DNA from: Amphiscolops sp. MND2022
Lineage: Eukaryota
Length of the DNA stretch: 64,000 bases
Reading direction: 5' to 3'
Assembly (NCBI GenBank): GCA_964187785.1
Contig: OZ076409.1
Location: 68,698,001 to 68,762,000, forward strand
Shown: positions 14,006-57,800 of the stretch, in pieces
Position numbering within the stretch: position 1 is the first letter of the stretch
Layout: every line of letters begins with the position of its first letter
The notes under the pieces: generated by a model
Told to the model about the DNA's origin: nothing
Database searches by the model: none
Seen by the model: only the letters and a program-made list of their open reading frames with translations
Translations under genes and position numbers: made by a program

Positions 14006-15580
14006 ATGGCTTCGGTGGAATGGGAAAACATTTCTTCAACTCTGAATCTTGAGGAGGAAAACTTGGAACCAGGATGGTTTGAGAAGACAGAAAGGTTTCT
14101 TTGGATTCCTGCCCAGGTTTTGATAATCTGCGAGCTGCTGATTGGATTATCTGGACTCGTTTTCAATTACTTCGTGCTGGATGTTTCCAAAAGGAACCCA
14201 CAACAGAACTCTGGATCATTCTGGATGGGCCACGTTGCAACTTGGGATACCCTGTCTCTGGTTTTGATGATACCTCAAATCATTGCCACACTTTTTTTCA
14301 AACAAGATTTACGAACTCTGGGAGGCCCAGTTTGTAAGATTATTCCCTACGTCTGGTGGGCTGTCTCCATGAACACAAACGCCCATATGGTGGGAATGGC
14401 TGTAGATCGGGCACTCAACATTTCATTCCCTGATTGGCATTTCCCAAAATCCTGGAAAAAGATAATCCCAAAGATCTCGATAGGATTGACTGTGCTTCAT
14501 TTCGCTCTGGTCATTCCAAACCTGGTTTTCTTCGAGCTTGAAGACTCGGTTTGTGAAATGAGATCACGTCACACTGCTATAATGAGAGTTTATCAAGTCT
14601 TTGTGTCAATAATGGTCAGGTGTGTTGGAAATACAGTTGCAACTGCAGTTGCTAGTTTGGTTTTTATTCGGAAACTGCGCGAAAGACGTACCCCGAAAGT
14701 TTCCACCAAACCAGAACAAAAACAAGCAACCGAGATAAACGCAGATTCAGTTGGGGACACGAAAAAGAAGAAAAATTCTGATCGCGAGGAAACAAAAACC
14801 AAATCCAATACGAATGAAACCCGAAATTTGGATGAAACAGATGAGCCAGTGGAGTCATATCAAACTGACTTCATCTATTGTGGACCCAACAACTCTATCC
14901 CAACGAACTTTGTGGGAGCACGTAAAGGGGGAGAAGTTTGCATTGAAATGAAAGCAATTGTCAGCAAAAATTCAAATGGTGGTAACACAAATGGCATGAA
15001 GTTTGGGGTCAGCAACCAAAGTTTCCAGGAAACTGAGTTTGGCGGAACTGACAGAGAGCAAACATCGAGCAATATCGAAGCCGACGGTGACGTCACAATT
15101 GACGTTGAGCTTACAAAGTCACGTGACCAAGCCACTAGCAGCCAAAGCAATACTGCAATGACATCATCACGGGACGTAATGGATTTGAAAAGCAAACTAG
15201 CTGGCTCTGAAACGATAAAGATTTCCAACTCCAATCCTGTTGTTTTGGATCACGGTGTTGGCAAAAATGAGACCAACACTGACAAAAAAGAGAACAAAAA
15301 GAAGGAAAAAGTTGCGCCAGTTTTCAGCCCAGAAGACATCACAGCGATTCGAACCTTGTATTACGTCAGCCTCTTCTTCTTGTGCACCAATTCCACGTCG
15401 ACGGTTCTGTTCATGCTGAAGGAAAGCATCTTCAATTCTGAGTCGCCAGCAGCGCTAAAAAGTTTCCTGGAAAACTTGGCAGGTGTGTTAATTGTGAGCA
15501 ATCACGCCTTCAACTTTTTCTTCTACCTCAGGGGGAGATGTTTCAAAGAAACTTTCAAGGCACGGTGGATCAATCACTGA
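14006..15580 (+). CDS. Intronless class A (rhodopsin-like) GPCR, orphan/peptide-receptor-like, 524 aa, with very long ICL3
   Basis: Seven hydrophobic segments; TM1 GLVFN; TM2 ATWD; TM3 Cys (PVCKI) and AVDRA (DRY-like); ECL2 Cys (SVCEM); TM7 NHAFNFFFY (NFxxY variant); N-terminal NIS glycosylation sequon. Confidence 0.88.
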   Translation: MASVEWENISSTLNLEEENLEPGWFEKTERFLWIPAQVLIICELLIGLSGLVFNYFVLDVSKRNPQQNSGSFWMGHVATWDTLSLVLMIPQIIATLFFKQDLRTLGGPVCKIIPYVWWAVSMNTNAHMVGMAVDRALNISFPDWHFPKSWKKIIPKISIGLTVLHFALVIPNLVFFELEDSVCEMRSRHTAIMRVYQVFVSIMVRCVGNTVATAVASLVFIRKLRERRTPKVSTKPEQKQATEINADSVGDTKKKKNSDREETKTKSNTNETRNLDETDEPVESYQTDFIYCGPNNSIPTNFVGARKGGEVCIEMKAIVSKNSNGGNTNGMKFGVSNQSFQETEFGGTDREQTSSNIEADGDVTIDVELTKSRDQATSSQSNTAMTSSRDVMDLKSKLAGSETIKISNSNPVVLDHGVGKNETNTDKKENKKKEKVAPVFSPEDITAIRTLYYVSLFFLCTNSTSTVLFMLKESIFNSESPAALKSFLENLAGVLIVSNHAFNFFFYLRGRCFKETFKARWINH

Positions 15581-39800: not shown

Positions 39801-42800
39801 CCCCCCTGCATTTTTTTGATGTTTTGCGACAGAATGGATGTTGAAAAACCTCAAAGGGTCCCCCCTTTCAGTTTTTTTCGGCATTGTGAGATTTTTTCCC
39901 GAAAATGAAAAAAAAAATTTTCTTCAATTTTTTCATGTTTTGCGACAGAATGGATGTTGAAAAACCTCAAAGGGTCCCCCCTTTCAGTTTTTCGGCATTG
40001 TGAGACTTTAGCGCGCCACTCGGTCCATTTTTTTAGTATGTAATTTTTTCAAAAAAAAATTTTTCGAAAAATTTTCGATTTTCGAGTACTGTAAAAGAAT
40101 ACTTGACACTTGGAAGTCTTTTTGCTATTTTTGAGCCTTGGATATGGCGCCGACTTGGGCCGGTCCCGGCTTGTTCGTCTCATTTTCTGGATTTTGGAGA
40201 CATCACGTCAATATTCCGTGAAAAGGCGCCGAATGCTATGCAATATCGTCTGAAACCCTTATTAAAGGGTTTGCTTTACCATACAATCAGCTGGTGCGTT
40301 AAGAATTTGCAGAAACTAAATGTGCCAAATTTGGCACATTGGTCAAGTTAAGGTTAATGATGATGAAACGTATCCAGCAGGACAAACGCACTCTATTGCA
40401 AAACTTGCAAGCAAATAGCATTTTAGAGGCTCATTCAAATCTTCAGTTCAAAAAAGACGGAGTACTGAATTCACAAGGTGGTTATGTAGGAATGAGTTTG
40501 AACCCATACTGAAACGGGACAAGGCTGAGTTGTTAATAGAAGCGTGTTTTTATCGCAGCGACTTATAAAGTTTGAAATTCTACCCCCTCAAATGTTTTTT
40601 GACATTATCCATTTTATTACACATTTTTTATTAGAAGGCCCATGTTTCATTAACCAGTCAAACGGTAATGCGAATGATCAAAGTGAATGCCTCTCAAATG
40701 CTTAAAAACCTGTAATACGATGTTGTGAAAAGTAACCTTGGCCTGAGTAGCTTTGGATTTGTTGCGCAAATTAGCGCTCGAGTTCAGATTAGAAGTGCGC
40801 CCCCTAGTGGGGCTATGACGAGTTACTAGATTGGCGGAGGAGACACGATTGCACAGCCTCGTTGTCGAGCGGGGTCTGTTGTTATTGTTCACAGACATCA
40901 ATTATAACCCATTAAATATTAAATATCATCTTATAATTTCATGATCTGATAATGATAACTATCTTAACAATTAGAAGTGAATAAATCAAAATATAACTAT
41001 ATTTAGATAACTAAGTCAGTAATAAATAAAAGCATAAGGAAATAATGAAGAAATTATAAGTTTAAGAATAACAAATTCGGAAATATTTGTCGCTTTTAAT
41101 CGTCATTTCAAAGCAAATTCAAAAACTCTGTTGGCCGTATATACGTAAGTTGTTCCGGAAAAAAAACAAAATCGATCACTTTTCTGTAGAACATACTATC
41201 GTGCAGAACTCCAACCAAAACGTTGAATTAGAAACGTTTAAAATGGTCTATAATGTTCATAGAGTATAATTCATTGCGGTATTTGTAGTACAAAAAACGG
41301 TGACTCATAGTCATAAAGGTGGTGTAATTCCGGCCGTCGCTGCCAGACTTACATTTATGCATTGATTGCGTAGAAAAAGCGGTAGGAACTAAACTGTATA
41401 CATTTTCCCCAAACATTCATTCCACTTTTTGCGCTGGAAAAAGGTATAATCCAACATTGCGACCAAACGAACAATACAGCACTGTACTCGCGCCAGCCAG
41501 TATGCGTTGCATTGTAAAAATGAAATATTACGTAACACTGTATTTACGTTCATTTTACTACAACTTATTTTAAATCATTGGCAGGTGCACTTATATTTTC
41601 CTCCAGTACGTGTCATCTCCCCACCCCTCCCCATTTCAATGCTTCAAAGAGGTACAAATATGAATAGAAGTAGTCAAGATTATGTGCCGACAACAGTACG
41701 TTAGATTTTTGTAAAAAAAACATCAAAAATCAATATTCCAAAATGGTTTTTATTTGATACTGGAGATCAACATACAGGTTTTTATGAAATTGAATGAGAC
41801 AGACAACAGGGAACAATACTCATAATAAAAAGAGGAGAATGCTAAAGCATGATTTCATTTTCAGGGTAAAAAATCATCAGGATAGCGAGTGATCTGTTAT
41901 TACCTGGTCTACATCAACTCTAATTTCCTCGTAAATCACCTAAAAACCAAATCAATCATTTTTCATAAGGCAAAACCAAAAAAGTTAGTTGAACCGAGTC
42001 GCGAAATTTGATCTGCTGCATTTATCAAGTGAAAGTAAGACACGGTCTAGCTCATTCAGCACCGATTGAGAAAGAAGGAACTTTGTAAAGAAAATGGTTC
42101 TAAGATATGTCGAGAGAAGAGACAGCCCTATGAGTATATGCTAGGCTGGCCAATGACATAGTGCAATAGAATCTTGAAGGCAGTAGAAACAATAATTGCT
42201 TAAGCAACTGATTGAGTACAAGCAAACCTTGTCGCTCTTGCTTGAAGAGACTTCTTTGCTTCTCATGGGAGACGCAGATCGGCCGCCTTCCTCCCTCATG
42301 CTCTTCTTCACCAGTTTCTCATTCTCTTTCTTGTAGAAGTCTCGTTCTTGCTCAATCGACTTCAGCATCTGGTTCAACCTGAAAAATAATTTCAATGTAC
42401 ACTACAACACTGCATCAAAAGTTACCATTTTAGGATATTTCGTTCACTGTTTCCAGTTAAGTGCCGTTTTCTTTTAAAATACATGGTCTCTAACGCAGGA
42501 GACTTCGATTTTTTAAACACTTGCGTTGCGTGAAAAGACGATTAAAAGGGAAATGAAAATGGATAAAATCATTTTAATAATAGCAAAGATATGAAGCTGT
42601 CAAATAAACAATTCACTGTCCCATATATCAATTTGAGTTCCAAATTATTTAGTCGAATTATTTAGGATCAAAAAATAATTCCGGAGAAAGTTTCAAACTG
42701 AAACTGGTTTCACTCTTACAGGTCGGCCCTCGTCAAAACCTGCCGCTGGTGAAGTAGTGACACGTCACTCCGGTTCGGCGAGTAGTAATCGAATTCCCGT

Positions 42801-45800
42801 TCCTAATATATAAAAACCCTAAATTTAAGCATTTTTTCCAAAAAAATCGATAAAATTGGTGTTTTTTCACTATTAAAAAATAAAAAAATTTAAGCTCGTA
42901 AAATCATTAAAAAATTAATCTTTTTTCACAAAATACCAATCAAACCATCTAAAAATCAGCCTTTTTTAACAACTGAAAAATTAACAAAATAAAAATCGAT
43001 GCACAAATTTTCCAAAGAAACATTTGTCACAAACCAAAATTGAACTAACCTCCATCGACGTATAATAGACTTATTACCACATCGTGAAGAAAAAATAAAT
43101 ACTTACCAAATGCGTTCAAGTAGAAAACACAAGTGTCCAAATTGAAAACGAGTTTTTTTCTTCATTTTTACCCATTAAAAAATTACATATAAAAATTCAT
43201 GAACTCATTTTTCATTATAGATAAATTCACGGATGCGCACAAGTGGACACCACAACTGTTGGAAAAATTACCACCATATAAATTTCAAACAGAATTTCAC
43301 GCACCAGACGGTCGTCTGACCTTGAGGTGCATTCGGAATGCACCAAAATTTCATTTTTCACTTTTCTCTCTACAGTCACAGCAAACAGCATGGCCGAAGA
43401 AATGAAACTGACAAAGAGACTTTTTCCATTCGGACTTTCACTCTTAAACATGTAGAGATTACTAATAGATCAGGAAAAAAGCCATAACTCAACGAATATT
43501 TGAGTTACAACAAAGTATAATATACCATTGAAAAGGTCTTGACAAGGGTTATCTATCTAGATACAATTAAAAAACCTAGACTGAAACTATACCATCTGAA
43601 ACTTCGAAAAACCTGAAACCCTTAAACAAGTAGAGATTATAAAAGTTCAACATATCACAGTGTATGATACATCATTGGAAAGGTCATAAAAAAGAAATCA
43701 TAGATGGTGATTATCTCCATGATCGGACATCCTCAGCTGAAACTATACCATCTCAAACCTGAAACCCTTAAACATGTAGAGATTATAAAAGTTCAACATA
43801 TCACAGTGTATGATACATCATTGGAAAGGTCTTGAGTTGGAGATCACAGATTTTGAATATTTTCATGATTGGGTACCCACAACTGAAACTATACCATCTC
43901 AAACCTGAAACCCTTAAACATGTAGAGATTATAAAAGTTCAACATATCACAGTGTATGATACATCATTGGAAAGGTCTTGAGTTGGAGATCACAGATTTT
44001 GAATATTTTCATGATTGGGTACCCACAACTGAAACTATACCATCTCAAACCTGAAACCCTTAAACATGTAGAGATTATAAAAGTTTAAGATATTACCATG
44101 TGTGATACATCATTGGAAAGGTCTTGAGTTTCTGATTACAGATTATAAAAATTTTCTTAAATGAAATATTTATCATTCAAATCTGTGGCAAATTTTAATA
44201 CCTTACCACCACAAAATTAAAATATTTTTCACCAATTTTTTGAAAAATTATAATTGAAAAATTTTTAATTAAACTATTTTTTCTTTAATAAATAGAAATG
44301 GAGAATTGTAGTATTTGTAATTTAAATTATAAAAAAGCTTTCAAGTCTGATCATCTAAAATCAGTAAAACATCTTGAAAAATTAAATCAATATTATTGTA
44401 AAAAAATGTAATTTATATATGCCTATCTCAGATAAAAGTTCTCATTTAAATTCAGATGAACATAAAAACCGCATCAATAAAATATGGTGTGAAGATTGTA
44501 GTAAATATATATCTGATACAACAAGACATTTCCAAAGTGAAATTCATTTACAAAACCGTCAACAAAACGGTATGCAAAGCCAGCGAAGCTGTATTACAGA
44601 TTTCGGTACAGCTTTGCTGCCCTCCGGTAATGGAGTAAATATAATTGTGAATGAAAACACATACAATAAACTGAAAATAAATCCAACTGAAAATCTTGAA
44701 AATCGTATAAAAGAATTAATAAGTAAAAGGTACTTTCCTCGATTTAAATATCAATTGAGTTATCTAGCTAAATTTTCAAAAATAATCAATGGAGAAGAAG
44801 TATTTAAAAGATGGATAAAATCAGATCTAATATATAATCATACACAACAAGATACTCATAACACATTAATACAGAAATTAGATGATGAACAATTAGAAGG
44901 ATCAGGTTTTGTGTTTCAAGAAATAGAAGAAGTTATATTAGAAATATATAAAGTTAAGGATATTCAAGCATCTTCATATATTGAGTTACCACCAAAATAT
45001 AAAAACAGCCAATCAATAATAAATATAAAAAATAATGATCAATTTTGTTTTCTATGGTGTATATTAGCATATTTATTTCCAGTTGAGAATAATAAAAATA
45101 TAACATCGAGTTATTCAAAACATTTTGATAAATTCAACCTAGAAGGTTTAGAATTCCCTATGAAAGTCAAAGATATTCCCAAGTTTGAAAATTTAAATAT
45201 CGGACTGTTTATAAATGTATTCGAACTCACAGGAAATGTGCTAACACCAATCCACGTTAACAAAAATTACTTACAACCACAAATAGATTTATTATTATAT
45301 CAAAATCACTATTGTTTAATAACAAAGTTGCATTGTTTAATAAATAAAGATTCACACATGAAACATGTATGTAGAAGATGTTTAACAGCATTTAGTTCAC
45401 AACCAGTTCTAATTGATCATATGCAAAGATGTATAAAACAACAACCAACTAAAATCACATTCAGTTGGAAGAATCAGTTAAAGTTCGAAGATTATTATAT
45501 GAAAGTTTCTGTACCAACAAGAGTATATGCTGATTTTGAATGTATCAATCAACCTCAAAATACTCCCAACGTGTTATTCAAACAAATTCCAATTGCAGTA
45601 GGATATTATGTAATTTCACCATTCGGAAATTATTACTATTCATACTTTGGAATAGATTGTACCACGTGGTTTGTAAATAGAACGTTAACTTTAGAAAAAA
45701 TTGCAAATAACTATTTTAAAACAAACTTAGAATTACAAATAACTCCTCAAGAGGAAGAATCATTTCAACTTGCAGAAGAGTGTTGGCTTTGTGAAAATCC

Positions 45801-48800
45801 ACTCGATGATACTAAGGTTAGAGATCATGATCATCTAACAGGAAAATACAGAGGAGCAGCTCATAATATATGTAACATAAATTGTAAACAAAGGTCATCA
45901 AGTTTTGTTCCTATATTTTTCCATAACTTTTCGGGGTATGATTGTCATCTTATATTTGAAGAACTTTTAACCGAAGCATACAATCAGAATTATAATCCAA
46001 CAATAATTCCAAAATCACTGGAAAATTATGTTAGTGTACAAGTAGGTTGTTTGAGATTCTTAGATTCATACCGATTTCTTTCTTCCAGTTTAGATAAATT
46101 AGTTAAGAGTTTAGATAATTTTCCTATCATGAAATTGGAAGGAATGAGTGATGATTTATTCAAAAAGAAATTAGCTTATCCTTATGAATACTTAAATCTT
46201 GATAACTTTCAGGAACCATTAAATCTAACCAAAGAAGATTATTGGTCAACATTAACACAATCCTATCCATCAGATGATGATATAAAAAGAACCCAAGAAT
46301 TAATTGATAAAAATAAAATTGAAAATGGAAGAGAATTAACAATGTTATATTTAAAAATGGATGTTCTTCAATTAGCTGATGTATTTGAAAACTTTGTGGA
46401 AAGTTCTACACGAGAATATAAAATTAATCCTTCGTATAGTTACTCTCTACCTGGTTATACATGGAAAGCAGGATTAAAGTTGACTAATATGAAATTAGAT
46501 TATATAAAATGTAAAGAATTATTATTACTTTTAGAAAACAATATACGTGGAGGAATTTCAAGTGTTATGGGAGATCGTCATGTGCAATCTGATGAAAATA
46601 AACAAATCTTATATATCGATGCAAATAATCTATATGGATGGGCAATGAGTCAATACCTTCCTACTGGAGACTTTAAAAAGATAAAGCTCTGTTGTGAATA
46701 TGATTCTGTACTGATGAATGAAATTAAAGAAGACATTTTCAATACACCAGATGACAATGAATTTGGATACTTTATAGAATGTAACTTAGAATATCCAGCT
46801 GAAATTAAAGAAAAAACAAAAAACTTTCCTTTTTGTCCGTATCAAACAAAAGCAGATCCAGACTTATTCTCAGCTTATATGAATAATGTAAATCAACCTA
46901 ATTACAAACCAACATCAAAACTTATGTGTGATGTAACCAATAAATCGAAATATATGATACATTATAGGATGTTTAAGTTTTATCTTAACCAAGGGATGAA
47001 AGTAACGAAGATACATACTATCTATAAGTTTAAACAAAGTCCATGGTTAGGTAAATATATCGATCATAATACTCAGAAACGCACAGTAGCGAAAACAAAC
47101 TTTGAAAAGGATCTTTATAAATTAATGAATAATGCTTTCTTTGGTAAGACTATGGAAAATGTAAGAGATAGAACCAATCTAGAATTCATTGATCATTCTC
47201 AAATAGATCAAATAATAAAAAGACAATCCAAGTTAAGTTTCAAAGGCATTGTGGATCATTATTCTAAGTTTAGTGTGTACAAGTTTGATAAAGAAAAACA
47301 GTCTTTGATAAACCAATTTATTTGGGTTTTACAGTACTAGAACTATCAAAACTATTAATGTATGAATTTTATTATAACAAATTACAACCATATTGGAAAC
47401 AATCCATACAACTACACTACATGGATACAGATTCTTTCATACTTAGTTTTGATACAAACCACCAAGAACTAATAAACTTTTTACAAGAAAACAAAGATGA
47501 ATTTGATTTCAGTGAATTGGATAAATCACATGAATTATATAATCCTATTAACAAAAAAGTTATAGGAAAAATGAAAATTGAAACAAGTCCAGTTTTGGTG
47601 TTAGATACCTTCACAGCATTACAATCAAAGTCATACTCTTTTAGTTATTATAATAATAATAATAAGAATAATAACATTCAAAAAGCGAAACAAAAAGGAA
47701 TACAAAAAGCTCCCAAATGTGAAGAATATCAGAATTCATTGTTTAATTCAGAAACATCAAGTTCTACAAATATATCAATTAGATCTAATTTACACAACCT
47801 TACAGTTGAAAAACAAAACAAACTAGCTTTGAATCCTTTTGACGATAAACGTTTGTATATAAATCCAATACAAAGTTTACCATGGGATAAACACACACAA
47901 AAAGGTGATTGTCCTTGTATATATTGTTTGAAATTAATTGGTTTGTATTATAAAGATTTAACTATAAATGTTGACGGTAGCAAGAAAACAGATGAAGAAA
48001 TTTATTTCAATGTTTGGAATTGGAAACAAGCACTCACCCATCAACAACTTGTGAAGTTGATAAGTGATCGAGCACATGTTTTATAAAAATAAATATATTA
48101 TTTTATAATTATTATTATTTATAAAAAGAAATTTATTTATCATATCAGCAAAGCTGAATTATTATATTTTTTAAATAAGGAATCTCTGATATCATTTTAT
48201 ATTATTTTTAAATTATTTTATTTATTTACTGAAAGAGCTTTGCTTATAATAAATCAAAATGCCTTTGTCCATCACTACTGATACTTATCAGTTTAGGTGT
48301 TAGGACTAGGGCATAAGCTATATAGTCTGCTACATCAATGGCTGCATTAAATATAAATTCTAATCAAATAGGTTGACTCCCGATGGGGTCTTTTTGTTTG
48401 GATAAATCAAATACATAAAAATTATAATTTGATCTGAATTTGTGCAAATCAATAAATGGATTGAGTAGATTAGTTTCACTTTTTAACAAATAGAAGTTTT
48501 CAATTTCACTGTATGCTTGATCATATTTGTCTCTATCATAATCACATTCTATTCCATCATCGGGATATTTTTCTGATCCTATTTTACAAACTGCATTTGA
48601 AACAGGTAAACGATCAAATATTGCATTATCATGTGTTTGTGAATCAATTTTATTTCTAGCTTGAAAAGCAACAATTACAAAAGTTGGTGTTGATTCTCCA
48701 CTATTACCTAATTCAAATGTCCAATTATTATTCGTGTTAACATCTTTTCTAAATACAATCCGTTCCATGTAAAATAATTCAGTTGGATCTTTGTCTAATA

Positions 48801-51800
48801 TTTGATCCATCACGAGTTGTTGGTTTTCCATTGATGGTATGTAGTGTGGAATGTACCAGATGTCTTTTATATTTATTTTTGCAGCATCTACACCATTGTC
48901 CCTTATAATAGGATCATTATTATTATTTCGTTTTAATGTGAGACTGTAACCCAATCCATAAGTTATTTTTTCTTGATCAGCGAATCCAAACAAGTCTTTT
49001 AGTTTTATTCTCACAAAAAAGGTTCCTTTCTCTGTCTTATTGTTAGTTAGTTCTTGTCTTCTGATAGTAATACTTTCTTCAAACCCATACATCAATTGAG
49101 AAGTTTGTTGAGTGCTAGTTAAAAGTTTATACATCAATGAAATTGGGTGTAGATTATCAACTTTTTCTAAATGTTTACCTGAACTAGTTGTCAGCTTAGC
49201 TTCACTAAATAAAGCAACGGGTCCAAAATTAACTAAACTTATTTGATCACCATCTGCGTATCTTGTATCATCATTTTTAAGAACTTCAAATTCTAATGAT
49301 ATGTATGAATTTTGTAAACAAATATATGCATCTTCTCTTGGGAAGATGATGGAAATGTTTGAATTATTATTGTTGATTGTAGCTAAACTACTAGGTGAGT
49401 ATTTAATAAAATCAATTTTATGAATAGGTTTATCCATAGCATATTTATTTTTCAAAGAAAATTATTCCATTTATATAGAAAAAAATATTCATTTTTTCTA
49501 CAAATCTTCGGTTTGTAAAAGAATAAATATTCATGATGATGATTTAAAATTTATACTGATTTTATTTTTACTAAATAAATTTATCCTAAAAAAGTAAACT
49601 CAGAATTGAGTTTAGTTTTATTTGTTTTATATAGATCGTAAGTTTGTTTTAATTTGTTGTATTCACTCAGATCAATTTTATTATCTTCTAAACATTTTGA
49701 ATGTAGTTTTTGGTAGTCGTGTAGTGTTCTACCAGCAAGAGTATATTTTTTAATATTGTGTTGTTCTTTTCTCTTCAGGTACTCTCCAGCAATTTTACTG
49801 ATTATACATAAACCTGCACCTATACCACTTGCTATAGGTACAACAACAAGTCCAACTCCTGTGACACTTAACGTGACACATGTTGATGATACTGCTAGTA
49901 CTGAAACTCCATCAATAGATTGAATTAAACCGTTTATAATTTTATATATTTTAGATTTCTTTTTATACTTTTTAGCTTCATGATTATAAAAATTTTGAAT
50001 ATCTTTTATATTTTGAATTGAATTATTAAAACTATTTATTTCTTTTAATCTAAGATCAAGATTCTGATCTTGTTGTAAACATGGGTACAATTTTTCACTC
50101 ATTTATTTTAAATAAAAACTTAATTTTAGTTTTCAAAAAGTATGAAATTTATCTCAGTATCGGTTAGTTTCATTCTATATTTAAGGTCAACTATATCTTT
50201 GTATTCATCTTTCTTTAAGCACTTCACGATATCTTCTCGCGTTGAATAGTCTAAATCAGATAAATAATACACACCATCTGATGTCTTTATTTCTTTTCCG
50301 TATTTTTCCAACAAGTATTCATCACTAAAATATAAGTACTCATTAAAGATTTGGTCTTTATTTTCAAATGAGTCAAACAATCCTTTGTTGTACAATAGTT
50401 GTATAACATCTTTGATGGTTTGATTTTTACATTTTTCCAATTCCGAAATAAGGTTTCTCTCAAAATGATTACGTAAAATGGTTTGTTGTTCTTCCACTAA
50501 CTTGGCAGCATCCAAAATTATTTCTTTTTTCTTTTCTAAAAATTTATTTTTAATATCTTGTTCTAAATATTTCAAATTTATTTTTATATCTTCTATACTC
50601 TTGTTAATGTCTAAGAATAACTTTGCATTGACTACGATTTGTGTTTCACCGTTGTCAAATATAATTTCTTGTAGGTTACCGAAGGTGCTTTGCATATCAA
50701 AATTTTCTAAAGTATTAGACAAATCATTAAGTTTCAAGTTAATTAATTTGGTTTGTGATTCCAATTCTTTTTCTAAATTCCCAATCTTGTCTTTTTGTAA
50801 GCTTTCGGCACTATAACCAAATTTATGAATTGACATTATTTATTTAAATATAATTACTCATAACGATGGAAAACATTCATACTTTCTAACGTTTTGTTGT
50901 TAGATTCAAAGTTGAATACACTTCTTAAAAGTTCTTGTTCATAATACTTTCCTTCTATTTGTTCGTTGTTTTCATCTACTAAACCATACGTAACTGGGTT
51001 AGTTGGATTAATTTTATGTATTTTAAAAAGTTCTCTATTCCAATTTGTTGTATAACCTTTACTATATAAATTGCGTTTATCAGGAACTCTTACATAGTCT
51101 CCCACTTGGAATTTGGGTTGTTTACGCAAAGCGCCTTCGGTGTTTTTAAACTTATTACGCAGAGCGCCTTCGGTATTGTTAGGTATTAGTTTTTGATTAG
51201 TTGACATTTCAAATGGTGTCATTTTTATTGTTCCATGCACACGATTATTATATTTTTCCATAGCAGCATCAAGGTGATTCAACCAACAAGCTTTACCTTC
51301 AATATACATTGGTTTTTTTTTTATTAGATCTAATAATGTTCTATTGAAGCGTTCAACAAAAACTGCTTTTAAATCTGAATTAGTTGAATAAATTTGAATT
51401 TCATTTTGATTAAAAAAATCTAAAAATGTTTTATTATAAAACTCTTTACCTCTATCTGACCAAATTTTATCAGGTTTTCTTTTTGCTTTTTCGATAAGAC
51501 TTTTTAATGCAGTTGTAGTACTTTTTCCTGATTTATCTTTGAGGGGAATTGCCCATGCATATTTAGTATGATTGTCAATTATTGTAAAAATGAACTTGTA
51601 GTTTTTGTTGTATTTGCTTAAACTTGAGCGATCGAACTTGCTTAAATTAAATCGATACTCCAACACTCATCTTTATAGTGAGTTTGTATTTGAATTCTTT
51701 GAAACTTCTTGATTACAGGAGAGAAAATTTCTTTAGCAATTTCTTTCTTCTTTTCACTCATTTATTTCCTAATAAATGAATAAAAATTTTTATATAGGTT

Positions 51801-54800
51801 TATTATGTGTAATTTTTATTATAGTTTTATATATTTATTGGTATTATATTAAACCTAATTATTATAAAAAATTATACCAAAAACTAAAACAATTCAAGGG
51901 ATTTAAATATTCTCATTTACAGCGAAGCTGCCCTCCGGTAACTAACAAAGAAGAACAAGAACTTACTCCACCAAATACAAATACAAATTGCCATATGTTA
52001 ATTTATGGTACTAGTGGATCAGGTAAGACTAGTTTCCTGAAGTATTATTTAGATCAAACTAAAACAAATTTTATAGTATTCGGTAGAGATGAGACTGAGT
52101 TTAAAGATAATTATATACCTTTGTTACAGTTAGAAAATATTGAAATAGAGAAACTTGCTAATAGAACTATAATTTTAGATGATGCAGGAGCATTCAAACA
52201 ACTCAGAACTAAAGTAGAAGACTTATTTCGGTTTGGTAGACACAATAATATACAAGTTCTATACCTTGCTCACTATGCAAAGGATGTTCTCCCAATAGTG
52301 AGAGAGAATTGTTTTAAATTATATATCACAATAAATAATCCAGATAGTTTCTTTGAAACCATAATACAAACTTATTCAATCAAAGAAGATCTCAAATGGA
52401 AACAATATCGTAGTCAGTTAGAATTTGGTGTAATTGAATTTGATACTAGATCACAAAAGTATAAAATACTCAGTCAAAAGTATCAACTAATCTACGATAC
52501 AACTAAACATAAATGGAGTCCTGAAGATTATGTAAAATATGAAAGTTATTTCTTTACAGGTGAAGAATATAATAAACTTAAAATATTCCTAGAAGATATG
52601 TCAGATCAAACAATTGAAATAACACCTTTTAATGTAGCTTTTTATTATGTATATTATTGTAAACAAAATAAAATCAAAGTAAATGAATCTAAAATAGAAA
52701 ATTACGTTGAACGCATGCAACAACCACTAATTTCAGATCAACTTAAAGAGGAATTTAAGGAAATTATAATTGATCAAGCAATCAGGTTCAGTAAAAGTAA
52801 TTTAAAAATGGGTCTGATTTCTTAGTAAAAAATCACTAAGCAAATTCACTAAGAGCATATATTTTTCACTAAGCAAATAAGGTTACACTTAAAACATCAT
52901 GCTCTTAGTGAATTTGCTTAGTGATTTAGTGATTTTTTACTAAATAAATGAAGTGTTTAATTTGTGGAAAAAGTAATGAAAAATCTGTCTGCTCCGATTG
53001 TGAGAATAAAAAAAGATGTAAAGTGTGTAACATACTGAAAACAACAAATGGTACAAATATAAATTGGTACAAATATAGAAACGGTAAATTGTATAGTACA
53101 TGTATAGAGTGTTTCAATAAAAAAGTAAAATGTGAATTCTGTAATAAAGAATTCAATACAACTTATTTATCAAAACATTTAAAAAGATGTAATATCAATC
53201 ATGATAATACAAATACCGAAGGCGCTTTGCGTAATGAAATTATAAATCATAATGAAAATCATGATAATAATAATTATACAAATAATATTATTACAAATGA
53301 TGATACTGATAATAATGATATTATGTTCACCGGAGGCCAGCAAAGCTGTAATCGAACATTGATAGTTGGTCCATCATTTTGTGGTAAGACCCATTTGTTA
53401 TTAAACAAATTACAATTAATTCGTTTAGATAATCCTGAACAAAAGATATGTATCATTACGAGGAGTCCGGAACAATACAATAAAATTGAAATAGAAGATG
53501 TTTCAGTGGAAGAAGATTTAGGTGATAAAAGTATTCAAGATTTTCAAAATTGTTGTGTTGTATTTGATGATATGTTAGACTCCAATCAGAAATTAATAGA
53601 TCCATTTTTTACTAGGGGAAGACATAATGATCTGGATGTTTATTATTTATCACAGTCATATTTTGATTTACCTAAAAGAACAATTAGAAACAATAGTAAT
53701 ATTATAATTTTATTTCAACAAACATTGAAAGATGTAGAACACATTTATAGAGACATAGCAGGTTTTGATATGTCTAATGATGAATTCAAAAGTTTATGCA
53801 GAGAAGCATGGCGGGATAATTATAATTATTTATTAATAAATAGGTTAGAAGATAAAAATGGTAAAAAATACATGATATGTAATGAATCCAATCTGCAATA
53901 CCAGATATTTAATCCACAAACTGATCCTTTTTAGTAAATGTGCTTATAAGACCGAAGGTGCTGTGCATGTTTTGATGTTGATTTGTTGTAATGCATTGGT
54001 ACTGTAATAATTTATCTGCAATTGCTATAATTTGTTCATTAAGCATAGGGTTATCATTTCCTCCTACTTTTTCAAAATAAAGTAGTTTTAATTGATCTAC
54101 AAGCTCATCTGGATCAGATGGAAGAAAAATAAAATTTAATCCACTTCCCAATTGGGATTGTTGATCTCGATATGTGTATTGATTAATCAAATTTTTAATG
54201 AAATAATATCTCTTTGATTTTTTATCTCCATAATTTAGATCATATTTCATATCTTTTAAAAAATTATAAATTAGCTTCTCGTTTTGTATTTCTTTATCAA
54301 GCTGTGTATAGGTTATAAAATATGAAAGATCTGGATTGTTTAAATTGTACGTGTTACCATTCTCGAAAGTCATTGTCGAACCTTTGATTAATACTTGTTG
54401 AGGATTAGTAATAGGGTTAATTGTGAAAAAATTGGAACTTCCTTCCACGGGTTCTAAACTAAATTGACTTTTGTTGTTGTCATTAAGCAAATTAGAAACT
54501 GTCTTAACGATACTAGAATCAACTGTATTTGAATTAACTAAGTTAGTAAGAACTTGATTATTACGGTTAGAAATTTTATCATATTCTTTAACTGATTTAT
54601 GTAATTTTTTATTAAGAGTATTACTCGATTCTTGTATTGCTCTAGTTTGATCTTGTATTGCTTGTGTTGTAGTTTCTGTAGAATTTCGTAGTGCTTGTAT
54701 TTGCTTTTCGGAAAGTTCTTGTTGTTTACTCTGTTTTTCCGTTACGGGTTCAAAAACTTCTTCCATATCATAATGAAAGTCTTGCTTCCCTAGTTTCTCT

Positions 54801-57800
54801 TTTAATCTTTCAGCTTTCAAAAAAGATTTTGATTCTTGCAATTTTTTAATTTTTCTAAATCATCTCGATTATGAATTGAATACATAATTTATTATTCATA
54901 AAAAATAATATTTAACTTACAGCAAGGCTGTAAATCAATGAATTTTACCCAAGTACAGGCCTTTTCCTTGATGAACAAATTTTATAATATCAGGAGCAGT
55001 TGCTGCTATCATTCGAGGATTTTTACTTGCTGCTGCAGTTCCAATATTTGCTGCTAGCTCTAATGCTCTTCCAGGATTATTGAGTATTTTCTTTCCAACA
55101 TTCTTGGCTGCCGAGCCCAAATGTTTAAAAAAATTACCCAATCCTTCTGCTTGTATTGTTTGATCTGATACAATAAGTGATTTATTTCTTTTACAAGAGG
55201 AACAAATACCTCTTAATAATTTAACAGCTGCTCCTGTTTTTTTATTTTGAGTAATATCTCCACGAATATTTATGGTAGCGGAATAATGTTTTCCACCAAC
55301 ACAATATGAATTATTTTTAAATTTACTAAAGCTCATTTCTTAGAAAAAAAATTTTCATTTTTTCTTCAGCACAAACTTTCAGTTTGCAAACTTTTAGTTT
55401 GTAAACCTTTGGTTTGTATATATATTAAATCTTGATGATTTGAATTGTAAATGCTAATGTCTCCCCGTTGAAATCAACTGGATTATGGTTGGAATCTTCT
55501 AAGAAAAATTGAATACTATCTAACCTTGTTTTGTTTATTTTTTTATACAAAATAATATTGGGTTCTTTTATAATTTTATATCCGGGAGGAGCACTAAGAT
55601 TAAATGAAAATAAAATTTGTTCTCTAATCCCATTAACAATTGAACCATCTACACAATCACATTTCAGATGAACTTTGTCTGTGGTTGTTATCATAACTGG
55701 TTTTTCTGATATATGAGTTCCTTGTATATAGTGTGTATTTGTGAATCCTAGAAGTTCATTTAATTTTGAATTAAAATAAATGGGATTAGAAGTTGTTAAG
55801 ACTGATTTCATTGATATTGTATCTGCTTCAATGTTGAATTCAAATTCAAAATCACTATCAGAAAGTTTTTGTTTCATAATTCTATTTATATCAATTAATT
55901 CGTATACTTCTGGTGGTAATTCAATTTCAACGAAGTCATTTTCAATTCCAAATTCAGGAATAATAATTGTTTTATCTTTAATATTTTGATTAATTTGATT
56001 AATTGTTTTCTTTAGTTGATCAAAGTCTTTTTCGATAAGTTTCTTATTTTTAGAATAACTATCAACCATAAAGGTATTAATTTTTTTTACATCAGAGATT
56101 TTATATAAATACTCAACATTCATTACTAATTGAGTGTCAACGTTTAATGATTTGAGTTGTTCGTCTTTTAGAAGGATTTTAAGTTTATTATTTTTTTCAG
56201 TAATGTTATATATGGTGTTGTATACTTCTAAACTTGTTACTCCCATCATCCATTGTTCAGGCAATTCCAAAGGAATATCAAATGAAAAAGATTCTTTTTG
56301 TTTATTCATTTTAAATTCTAAAGTTTCTTGTGGTTTGGATAAGGTATTTTCAACAATATCCAAATTAGATTTTGCAATACTCAATAAAAGAGATTCTTTT
56401 TTATCATAGGTTACAAAATTTGATAGATCCATTTATTAGGAGAAAAATTGTTTAAATCTATTTGCGGATATCTTATTTATAAATTCTTGGTTTTGTTTTG
56501 ATAATTTCTTTTTTGGATTATTTTTTTCTATTACTTTCTCATCAAATTGATTCTCATTGGTATTCATTGGTTTTTGAAATATTTTAAATTGAGCTGAATA
56601 AATATTAATTTTCTTCATTTAAGAATTATAAATTTTGATAGTATAAGTTTAAAACTGCATTTTTGAAGCCTATTATATTTGTGAGATATAACACATACAA
56701 ACAATAAGCTGCACAGTAACTGTCGTCTTTCTGGATTTGATATTCTGAATAGATACCTTTTTTAATGTGATTAAGTATATTTAGTGGTGGTGGACAGCCA
56801 TATGAATCAAAATAAAACTCGTTAACAAACATAACCCAATGTGTTCCTTTAGTTGGATGTAAGTTAACTATACCACTGGTGGTTATAAATTTATCATCTC
56901 TCATATATATTCCACAAGATGTGTTCATGAGTTTTAAGATTTCTTTTATTTCTACATTGGAAGTTGCTTCATTTTTTAATCTATATTTATCAACAAATTC
57001 TTTGAATGATAAATAATTCATTTAATAGTTATTTTTCCATGATTATATCTTGGTCAATGAATTTTCCATTGGAAAAACTTGTTCATCGATTTTTATTTTG
57101 TTAAATTTTTAGTTGCGAAAAAAGGCTAATTTTTAGATGGTTTGATTGGTATTTTGTGAAAAAAGATTAATTTTTTAATGGTTTTACGAACTTAAATTTT
57201 TCTTATATATTAGGAAGGGGAATTCGATTACTACTTTATTAAGTGAAAAGACGTGAAAAGACGATTAAAAGGGAAATGAAAATGGATAAAATCATTTTAA
57301 TAATAGCAAAGATATGAAGCTGTCAAATAAACAATTCACTGTCCCATATATCAATTTGAGTTCCAAATTATTTAGTCGAATTATTTAGGATCAAAAAATA
57401 ATTCCGGAGAAAGTTTCAAACTGAAACTGGTTTCACGCTTACAGGTCGGCCCTCGTCAAAACCTGCCGCTGGTGAAGTAGTGACACGTCACTCCGGTTCG
57501 GCGTAATAAATATGGTGATAAATATTGATCCTAGATAATTTCAGGTACTATTTGATCCTAGATAATTTGGCAAAATTTTCGATCTTACATAATTCGATTC
57601 TGCACAGCAATCCCTTCAATTTAGCCCCAATTATTGCCACAGCATTACAACGTCTTCAACATAAACCGAGTTTGATTTCAAGCTATATTGCAAATATGTG
57701 GGTTAACAAAACAAACGTGCTACCTGGTAGGAGACACAGATCCGTTCGCCTGTCCAGGTTTGCCGCCTTTCTTCAGCCTCATCTTTTCTAGCTCCGTCAA

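Follow-up and report, generated by a model that had tools for sequence, protein, structure and literature searches.

The 64,000-nucleotide window analysed here (positions 68,698,001 to 68,762,000 of the forward strand of contig OZ076409.1, assembly GCA_964187785.1, from Amphiscolops sp. MND2022) contains a decayed Polinton/Maverick element whose terminal inverted repeats with AGT-AGT ends are a hallmark of this group (Table 1). Its likeness to Polintons/Mavericks (Polintoviricetes, adintoviruses) extends to its size of about 14.5 kb, to its capsid and packaging ATPase and to its probable polymerase, integrase, penton and protease. In contrast with the accounts of Polintons consulted, which name one packaging ATPase, it carries two ATPases, one of which (ATPase 1) has a transmembrane (TM) helix and a tail of 100 aa. 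Neither ATPase frame is interrupted, despite the decay of this copy, in which the polymerase is spread over two frames, the capsid gene ends prematurely and the 5' part of the integrase gene is out of frame. ATPase 1 represents an apparently undescribed TM-anchored A32 subfamily within an otherwise ordinary Polinton.

The two ATPase open reading frames (ORFs) are adjacent and co-oriented and encode Walker A, Walker B and GRH motifs, as the initial annotation of this DNA had described; their products share 26% identity across 101 aa, in line with the divergent A32-like ATPases that it proposed. ATPase 1 (Walker A GTSGSGKT, Walker B IILDD, GRH and YLAH) exceeds the cut-off of the Pfam profile Pox_A32 (PF04665; 29.8 bits, cut-off 22.8). 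The best matches of its predicted model are B204 of STIV (expect value, E, 1e-5) and packaging ATPases of virophages and giant viruses (virophage E 4e-7), with an identity to these top structural matches of only 16–21%. A sequence search of the PDB with ATPase 1 gave nothing beyond weak P-loop matches and the ESM Atlas returned Pox_A32-type clusters alone. The predicted N-terminal helix (Kyte-Doolittle 19-mer value of 2.4 for residues 7–25) and the C-terminal extension of about 100 aa were both recovered. The model of the C-terminal domain (predicted local distance difference test, pLDDT, 67) had no Foldseek match at E 0.001 or better and a best Z of 5.7, to generic helical repeats; the absence of a Foldseek match is not claimed to indicate a new fold. 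The residues that follow the N-terminal helix are strongly basic in the window copy (distant homologs show a mixed charge pattern), which suggests for this copy that the ATPase domain would lie on the cytosolic or nucleoplasmic side. The window protein also has a 7-aa insert (residues 49–55) that is lacking in the closest database protein and reads about six codons beyond most of its siblings, aligned column 343 being the sole stop in 15 of 29 sibling loci.

ATPase 2 (GPSFCGKT, VVFDD, GRH and YLSQ) has the multi-CxxC N-terminal region that the initial annotation had noted, with five CxxC pairs. It stays under the Pox_A32 threshold in the Pfam profile search, and its residues 201–328 are 38% identical to the single ATPases of another Polinton family from the same genome (E about 1e-21). 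The spacer between the two ATPase genes contains an inverted repeat that may act as a transcript-end or regulatory hairpin. Perfect repeats of at least 15 bp are found in 62 of 67 spacers of the subfamily to which the window copy belongs (subfamily 1) and, in a search over a longer region, in 17 of 22 spacers of a second subfamily, both counts being made without a shuffle control.

A profile search of 1.84 billion representative sequences with ATPase 1 gave 302 matches at E 0.001 or better, the best 150 of which, mostly fragments, were examined; a further homolog search added eight full-length proteins and a second one gave near relatives only, among the matches listed. The conservation of the TM segment, which the initial annotation had left to be checked, is clear: ahead of Walker A, a TM-like helix is present in 98 of the 103 near homologs with enough N-terminus and in 24 of the 25 distant ones (26–52% BLAST identity), so that it reaches below 30% identity. 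Walker A, DD, GRH, H166, R176 and N178 are near-invariant (27–30 of the 30 rows that follow the first nine in alignment A7), as are residues of the tail. The complete and conserved active site argues that ATPase 1 would be a working ATPase and not a reduced subunit. The distant homologs come from public sequence assemblies, mostly on contigs shorter than 8 kb (those of P0326, P0157 and P0331 measure 28, 7.7 and 4.9 kb), and are annotated as unnamed or 'hypothetical'; the best match in the Amphiscolops genome of the closest of them (P0326) reaches at most 58% among 117 scored. Searches for the genomic context of ATPase 1-type genes found none in viral contigs, prokaryote genomes or GenBank phages, and with ATPase 2, neither viral contigs nor phages gave a match. 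A single locus with an ATPase 1-type gene (L113) came from one of two metagenome scans; it is an AT-rich 3.3-kb sequence that has a zinc-finger ORF without ATPase domain upstream of this gene and ends 94 bases downstream of it. The likeness between the fingers of ATPase 2 and this upstream gene was too weak to use (E 0.002–0.009).

The 20 ATPase 1-type sequences of a 29-row tree all fall into a single clade (support 100/99), apart from ATPase 2 and seven single ATPases; branches are long and all the comparison ATPases come from Polintons of the host genome, with no outside outgroup. With 20 rows, the topology that joins the two ATPases of the host genome was rejected (approximately unbiased test, p-AU 3e-6), which rules out that ATPase 1 is a duplicate arisen in this Polinton lineage, while a deep relation in which the whole ATPase 1 family is sister to ATPase 2 stays compatible (p-AU 0.076).

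The ATPase pair is fixed in this Polinton family. A search of the 1.07-Gb host genome with ATPase 1 gave at least 116 matches of subfamily 1 and at least 103 places that hold subfamily 2, which is about 65% identical. ATPase 2 lies downstream of ATPase 1 in all 30 loci picked by ATPase 1, including the window copy. In a test independent of ATPase 1 (50 ATPase 2 matches chosen outside the ATPase 1 matches), all 50 loci have an ATPase 1 sequence directly upstream of ATPase 2, with at least 300 aa of it covered in 44. In subfamily 2, ATPase 2 follows ATPase 1 in all 12 short loci and in all ten whole elements (three of which overlap the 12); each of the ten also keeps the gene order integrase, ATPase 1, ATPase 2, ORF285. 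Internal stops are absent from ATPase 1 in 21 of 29 sibling loci and present in the other eight; hence absence or disruption of ATPase 1 in most siblings, which would have spoken against the initial annotation, was not observed. Several copies (L036, L051, L052, L078, L080 and L107–L108) show internal tandem or inverted duplications of 3–5 kb of element genes.

This arrangement bears on a proposal that goes back to the initial annotation, in which both ATPases would belong to one motor, heteromeric or stacked, and ATPase 1 would provide the tether to the membrane. The two genes are adjacent and co-oriented in both subfamilies although other genes have moved, arginine fingers are kept in both proteins and the deep sister relation is compatible with the data. 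However, the identity between the two proteins is low, the active site of ATPase 1 is complete and strongly conserved, unlike that of a reduced subunit, the two genes are set apart by a strong hairpin and the gene upstream of the L113 homolog encodes zinc fingers without an ATPase domain, so that a joint motor appears unlikely on the basis of these comparisons.

Selection was estimated between the subfamilies (subfamily 1 against 19 subfamily-2 copies) and within subfamily 1 (80 copies). The ratios of nonsynonymous to synonymous substitutions (dN/dS) between subfamilies are 0.058 for the ATPase 1 core, 0.109 for its tail (hence about 0.06–0.11), 0.095 for the capsid and 0.154 for the ATPase 2 core, all being rough since the synonymous sites of ATPase 1 are near saturation (pS 0.66–0.79). 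Within subfamily 1, the corresponding polymorphism ratio (pN/pS) of ATPase 1 is 0.24 for variants found in at least three copies versus 0.71 for private ones; this pattern is common to every core gene (0.24 and 0.70 for the integrase, 0.20 and 0.75 for the ATPase 2 core). By these ratios, purifying selection acts on ATPase 1 as it does on the core genes; the co-occurrence and selection that the initial annotation had proposed to check were both found. The many broken genomic copies (8 of 29 top siblings with internal stops, and the 50-locus set) could indicate that ATPase 1 is a passenger or recent duplicate devoid of function; but the purifying selection seen in shared variants, the rejection of an in-lineage duplication (p-AU 3e-6) and the retention of the gene in two subfamilies with saturated synonymous sites make this highly improbable, and such a reading can be considered as already largely refuted.

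Other Polinton families were retrieved from the host genome by a Pox_A32 search (ten elements over about 20 kb, four of them extended, and four more), which revealed at least seven further Polinton ATPase types. With the ATPase 1 profile, one ATPase was found in each of these elements, none with a TM helix (seven ATPase types), although some of these elements may run past the stretches examined. The nearest single-ATPase family, whose capsid is 43% identical, carries the 173-aa protein, ORF133, ORF285, the penton and the protease. The 173-aa TM protein had been put forward as a possible partner of the ATPases; this does not hold, as it occurs in single-ATPase elements and its gene, together with that of the 236-aa protein, is relocated beyond the polymerase gene in 10 of 10 subfamily-2 elements, and it was rejected as a dedicated partner of ATPase 1. 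The zinc-finger fusion likewise lends no support, the fingers of ATPase 2 weakly resembling stand-alone zinc-finger ORFs of single-ATPase relatives (two of four, best E 4e-5).

A glutamine after strand 4 is a feature of A32-like FtsK/HerA ATPases that ATPase 1 does not fit: the corresponding position is occupied by His in 29 of 30 ATPase 1-type alignment rows. The difference between YLAH and YLSQ pointed out by the initial annotation is therefore real, but His is also found at this position in at least six of the seven single Polinton ATPase types, so that Gln is not required in Polinton ATPases and His was discarded as a mark of specialisation. Among the single-ATPase Polintons, many copies of a 267-aa ATPase have identical scores in the host genome, which suggests a recent spread. 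In a single-ATPase sister family (L149, L150, L153, L158 and L160), a highly divergent polymerase-like ORF precedes a 214–221-aa ORF, whose product we take to resemble a U-box protein.

Table 1. Features of the Polinton/Maverick element in the window.
Feature	Position	Strand	Remarks
Polinton/Maverick element	42781..57235	.	14.5 kb, ends AGTAGT...ACTACT, decayed copy
Left terminal inverted repeat, two matching blocks	42781..43016	+	Repeat comparison (I1, I2)
Right terminal inverted repeat	57069..57235	-	Repeat comparison (I1, I2)
Putative protein-primed DNA polymerase B, with a change of frame near 47300	44419..48086	+	Sister-element matches and motifs
PF21738-matching ORF	48364..49437	-	E 3e-17, 63 bits (cut-off 27); 416–425 aa in sister elements
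173-aa hydrophobic protein	49581..50102	-	Also carried by single-ATPase Polintons
236-aa ORF, relocates jointly with the 173-aa gene	50126..50836	-	
Putative retroviral-type integrase, head-to-head with ATPase 1	50854..51760	-	5' part out of frame in window copy
ATPase 1, TM-anchored A32-type, distinct family	51776..52825	+	349 aa, open ORF
ATPase 1 predicted TM helix (residues 7–25), then basic helix and conserved F-x-G-F/Y/W motif	51794..51850	+	
ATPase 1 catalytic motifs	52007..52309	+	Walker A 78–85, DD 135–136, GRH 154–156, H166, R176, N178
ATPase 1 C-terminal helical domain (residues 244–343), family-specific	52505..52804	+	No confident fold match
Perfect 29-bp inverted repeat with 40-nt loop, between both ATPase genes	52830..52927	.	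-48 kcal/mol
ATPase 2, soluble, N-terminal zinc fingers (3–81), low-complexity linker	52948..53934	+	328 aa; likely ordinary packaging ATPase
285-aa conserved Polinton ORF (ORF285)	53909..54766	-	Adjoins ATPase in single-ATPase relatives too
133-aa basic conserved ORF (ORF133)	54935..55336	-	Conserved in sister elements
Likely minor capsid (penton) protein	55425..56432	-	Conserved in sister elements
Likely cysteine protease	56626..57021	-	Conserved; label from His/Asp/Cys motifs

The Pfam search of the window element gave no polymerase, integrase or penton match. We take the polymerase B and the integrase to be such from their motifs, and homologs were found in sister elements (for the integrase, in all the families examined); the penton and, from its His/Asp/Cys motifs, the protease are presumed in the same way. 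The GC content is 25–28% across positions 44001 to 57000 versus 31–44% in the rest of the window. A look-up of RNA runs covering 51300–54000 listed none, a result that says nothing about expression. No 6-bp target-site duplication was found at the window copy (the only copy checked); in its place, the element is flanked by a 252-bp direct repeat (42529–42780 and 57252–57503, 100% identical), which would be either a later rearrangement or an assembly artefact. The left end of the element includes 146-bp tandem repeats (43440–44163). Each of two short GC-rich motifs is found five times within the element (44581, 44619, 48146, 50679, 51140, 51173, 51920, 53216, 53338 and 53952 for both together) and never in the flanks; most copies lie in frame inside genes, one being at the 7-aa insert of ATPase 1, and a similar motif is present near position 3198 of L113. 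Elsewhere, the window contains an intronless ORF for a rhodopsin-family receptor (14006–15580, Pfam match), in keeping with an animal host, and, at 60832–62114, what are presumably opsin-like exons.

Several known systems can be compared with ATPase 1. It shares with A32-like/FtsK-HerA packaging ATPases (PF04665; STIV B204; Sputnik V3) the fold, Walker A, Walker B (DD) and the arginine-finger GRH, to which it adds the TM helix, the F-x-G-F motif, a second invariant Arg (R176) and the C-terminal helical domain. The available sections of PMC6813254 describe the inovirus protein pI as a member of the FtsK-HerA ATPases that has one or two TM domains, hence a viral ATPase with its own anchor like ATPase 1; however, inoviruses are bacterial single-stranded DNA phages whose sole conserved marker is pI (same sections), whereas the context of ATPase 1 is a Polinton. 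The Zot profile did not match ATPase 1 and matched two distant homologs weakly, below the cut-off (E 6e-4 and 3e-3), Pox_A32 being the closest domain. According to the part of PMC4267777 that is accessible, PRD1 packages its DNA through a membrane conduit at a vertex made of the ATPase P9, P6 and the membrane proteins P20/P22. PRD1 belongs to the same broad virus lineage and couples an ATPase to a membrane conduit, but it has a separate anchor protein and a proven internal membrane, whereas no membrane-containing particle is known for the Polinton of the window, and the internal-membrane virion raised by the initial annotation is hypothetical.

Giant viruses resemble this Polinton in having more than one A32-like ATPase per genome (as judged from names among the structural-match targets), but their genomes are large and ATPase 1 is at most about 21% identical to their proteins among full-length matches. 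Medusavirus, Catovirus, Hokovirus, Klosneuvirus and Fadolivirus list more than one A32-like/P-loop protein, and extra copies may take other roles. ATPase 1 could similarly be an accessory membrane ATPase that acts on proteins or host membranes (scaffolding of an assembly site, host manipulation) and not on DNA, its tail binding partners. Its absence from related elements and a tail that matches only generic helical repeats agree with such a role, but its best structural matches are DNA-packaging NTPases and its A32 motif set is intact, which leaves an accessory function rather improbable, though worth retaining.

Excerpts of three accounts of Polintons name one packaging ATPase (PMC11161782, PMC8502044 and PMC8097293). 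The initial annotation had raised the possibility that two-ATPase Polintons were already a described group; no description of one was found in the literature searched, supplements, Repbase and subscription journals, where such an annotation may exist, being outside this search. This covers the accessible portions of PMC11161782, PMC8502044, 10.1101/2023.08.22.554363, PMC11131425, 10.64898/2026.06.19.733378, PMC3671162, PMC8097293, PMC4124505, PMC6813254, PMC8575486 and PMC4267777. Polinton particles had not been observed according to PMC8097293 and 10.1101/2023.08.22.554363, as far as the available text of these sources goes.

Taken together, the favoured reading, which we hold tentatively, is that this Polinton family fixed, beside its ordinary ATPase, a second A32-type ATPase of a separate family that is kept by selection and would probably form a ring on a membrane and pump the DNA of the element there. 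The process could be viewed as follows: ATPase 2 would remain the soluble motor that fills the capsid, and the acquired ATPase 1, a membrane-tethered DNA pump working beside it, would likely assemble into its own ring through its predicted N-terminal helix, exposing its ATPase domain to the cytosol or nucleoplasm. It would hydrolyse ATP with an arginine finger acting in trans, as in other FtsK/HerA rings, where this finger is supplied by the neighbouring subunit (B204; PMC4124505, in the part available). It would then move or hold the genome at the membrane, either at a membrane-bound assembly site or during exit. ATPase 1 would thereby unite in one chain what PRD1 splits between its ATPase P9 and the membrane proteins P20/P22.

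Several observations weigh against this reading. Related elements whose capsid, penton, protease and 173-aa protein are the same carry a single ATPase, which implies that ATPase 1 is dispensable for such elements, and no other new membrane gene accompanied it. Among the 50 loci chosen by ATPase 2, the ORF is unbroken for ATPase 1 in six and for ATPase 2 in 28; this set left out the best ATPase 1 matches, so that the count of intact ATPase 1 genes is biased low, but it still reveals many dead copies. The 47 N-terminal codons of ATPase 1, which include the TM stretch, are its least constrained part (shared pN/pS 0.44, few sites). The full-length model is modest (pLDDT 63), the near-saturation noted above makes the dN/dS ratios rough and the gene context of the distant relatives rests on a single locus, L113.

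By retaining under selection a second motor of packaging type with a membrane anchor, this lineage would offer one small protein with which to probe a membrane step in Polintons. The unnamed ATPase subfamily, with at least 25 distant members, would be scored as a plain A32 match by marker-gene pipelines. A bolder and doubtful extension is that ATPase 1 exemplifies a family, as yet unnamed, of viral DNA pumps that carry their own anchor. Driven by such a pump, which would act in series with the usual packaging motor, the Polinton genome would cross a membrane, either to enter a particle lined with lipid or to leave a cell or compartment. If true, this would amount to a two-motor, membrane-coupled transmission route that has not been described for Polintons.

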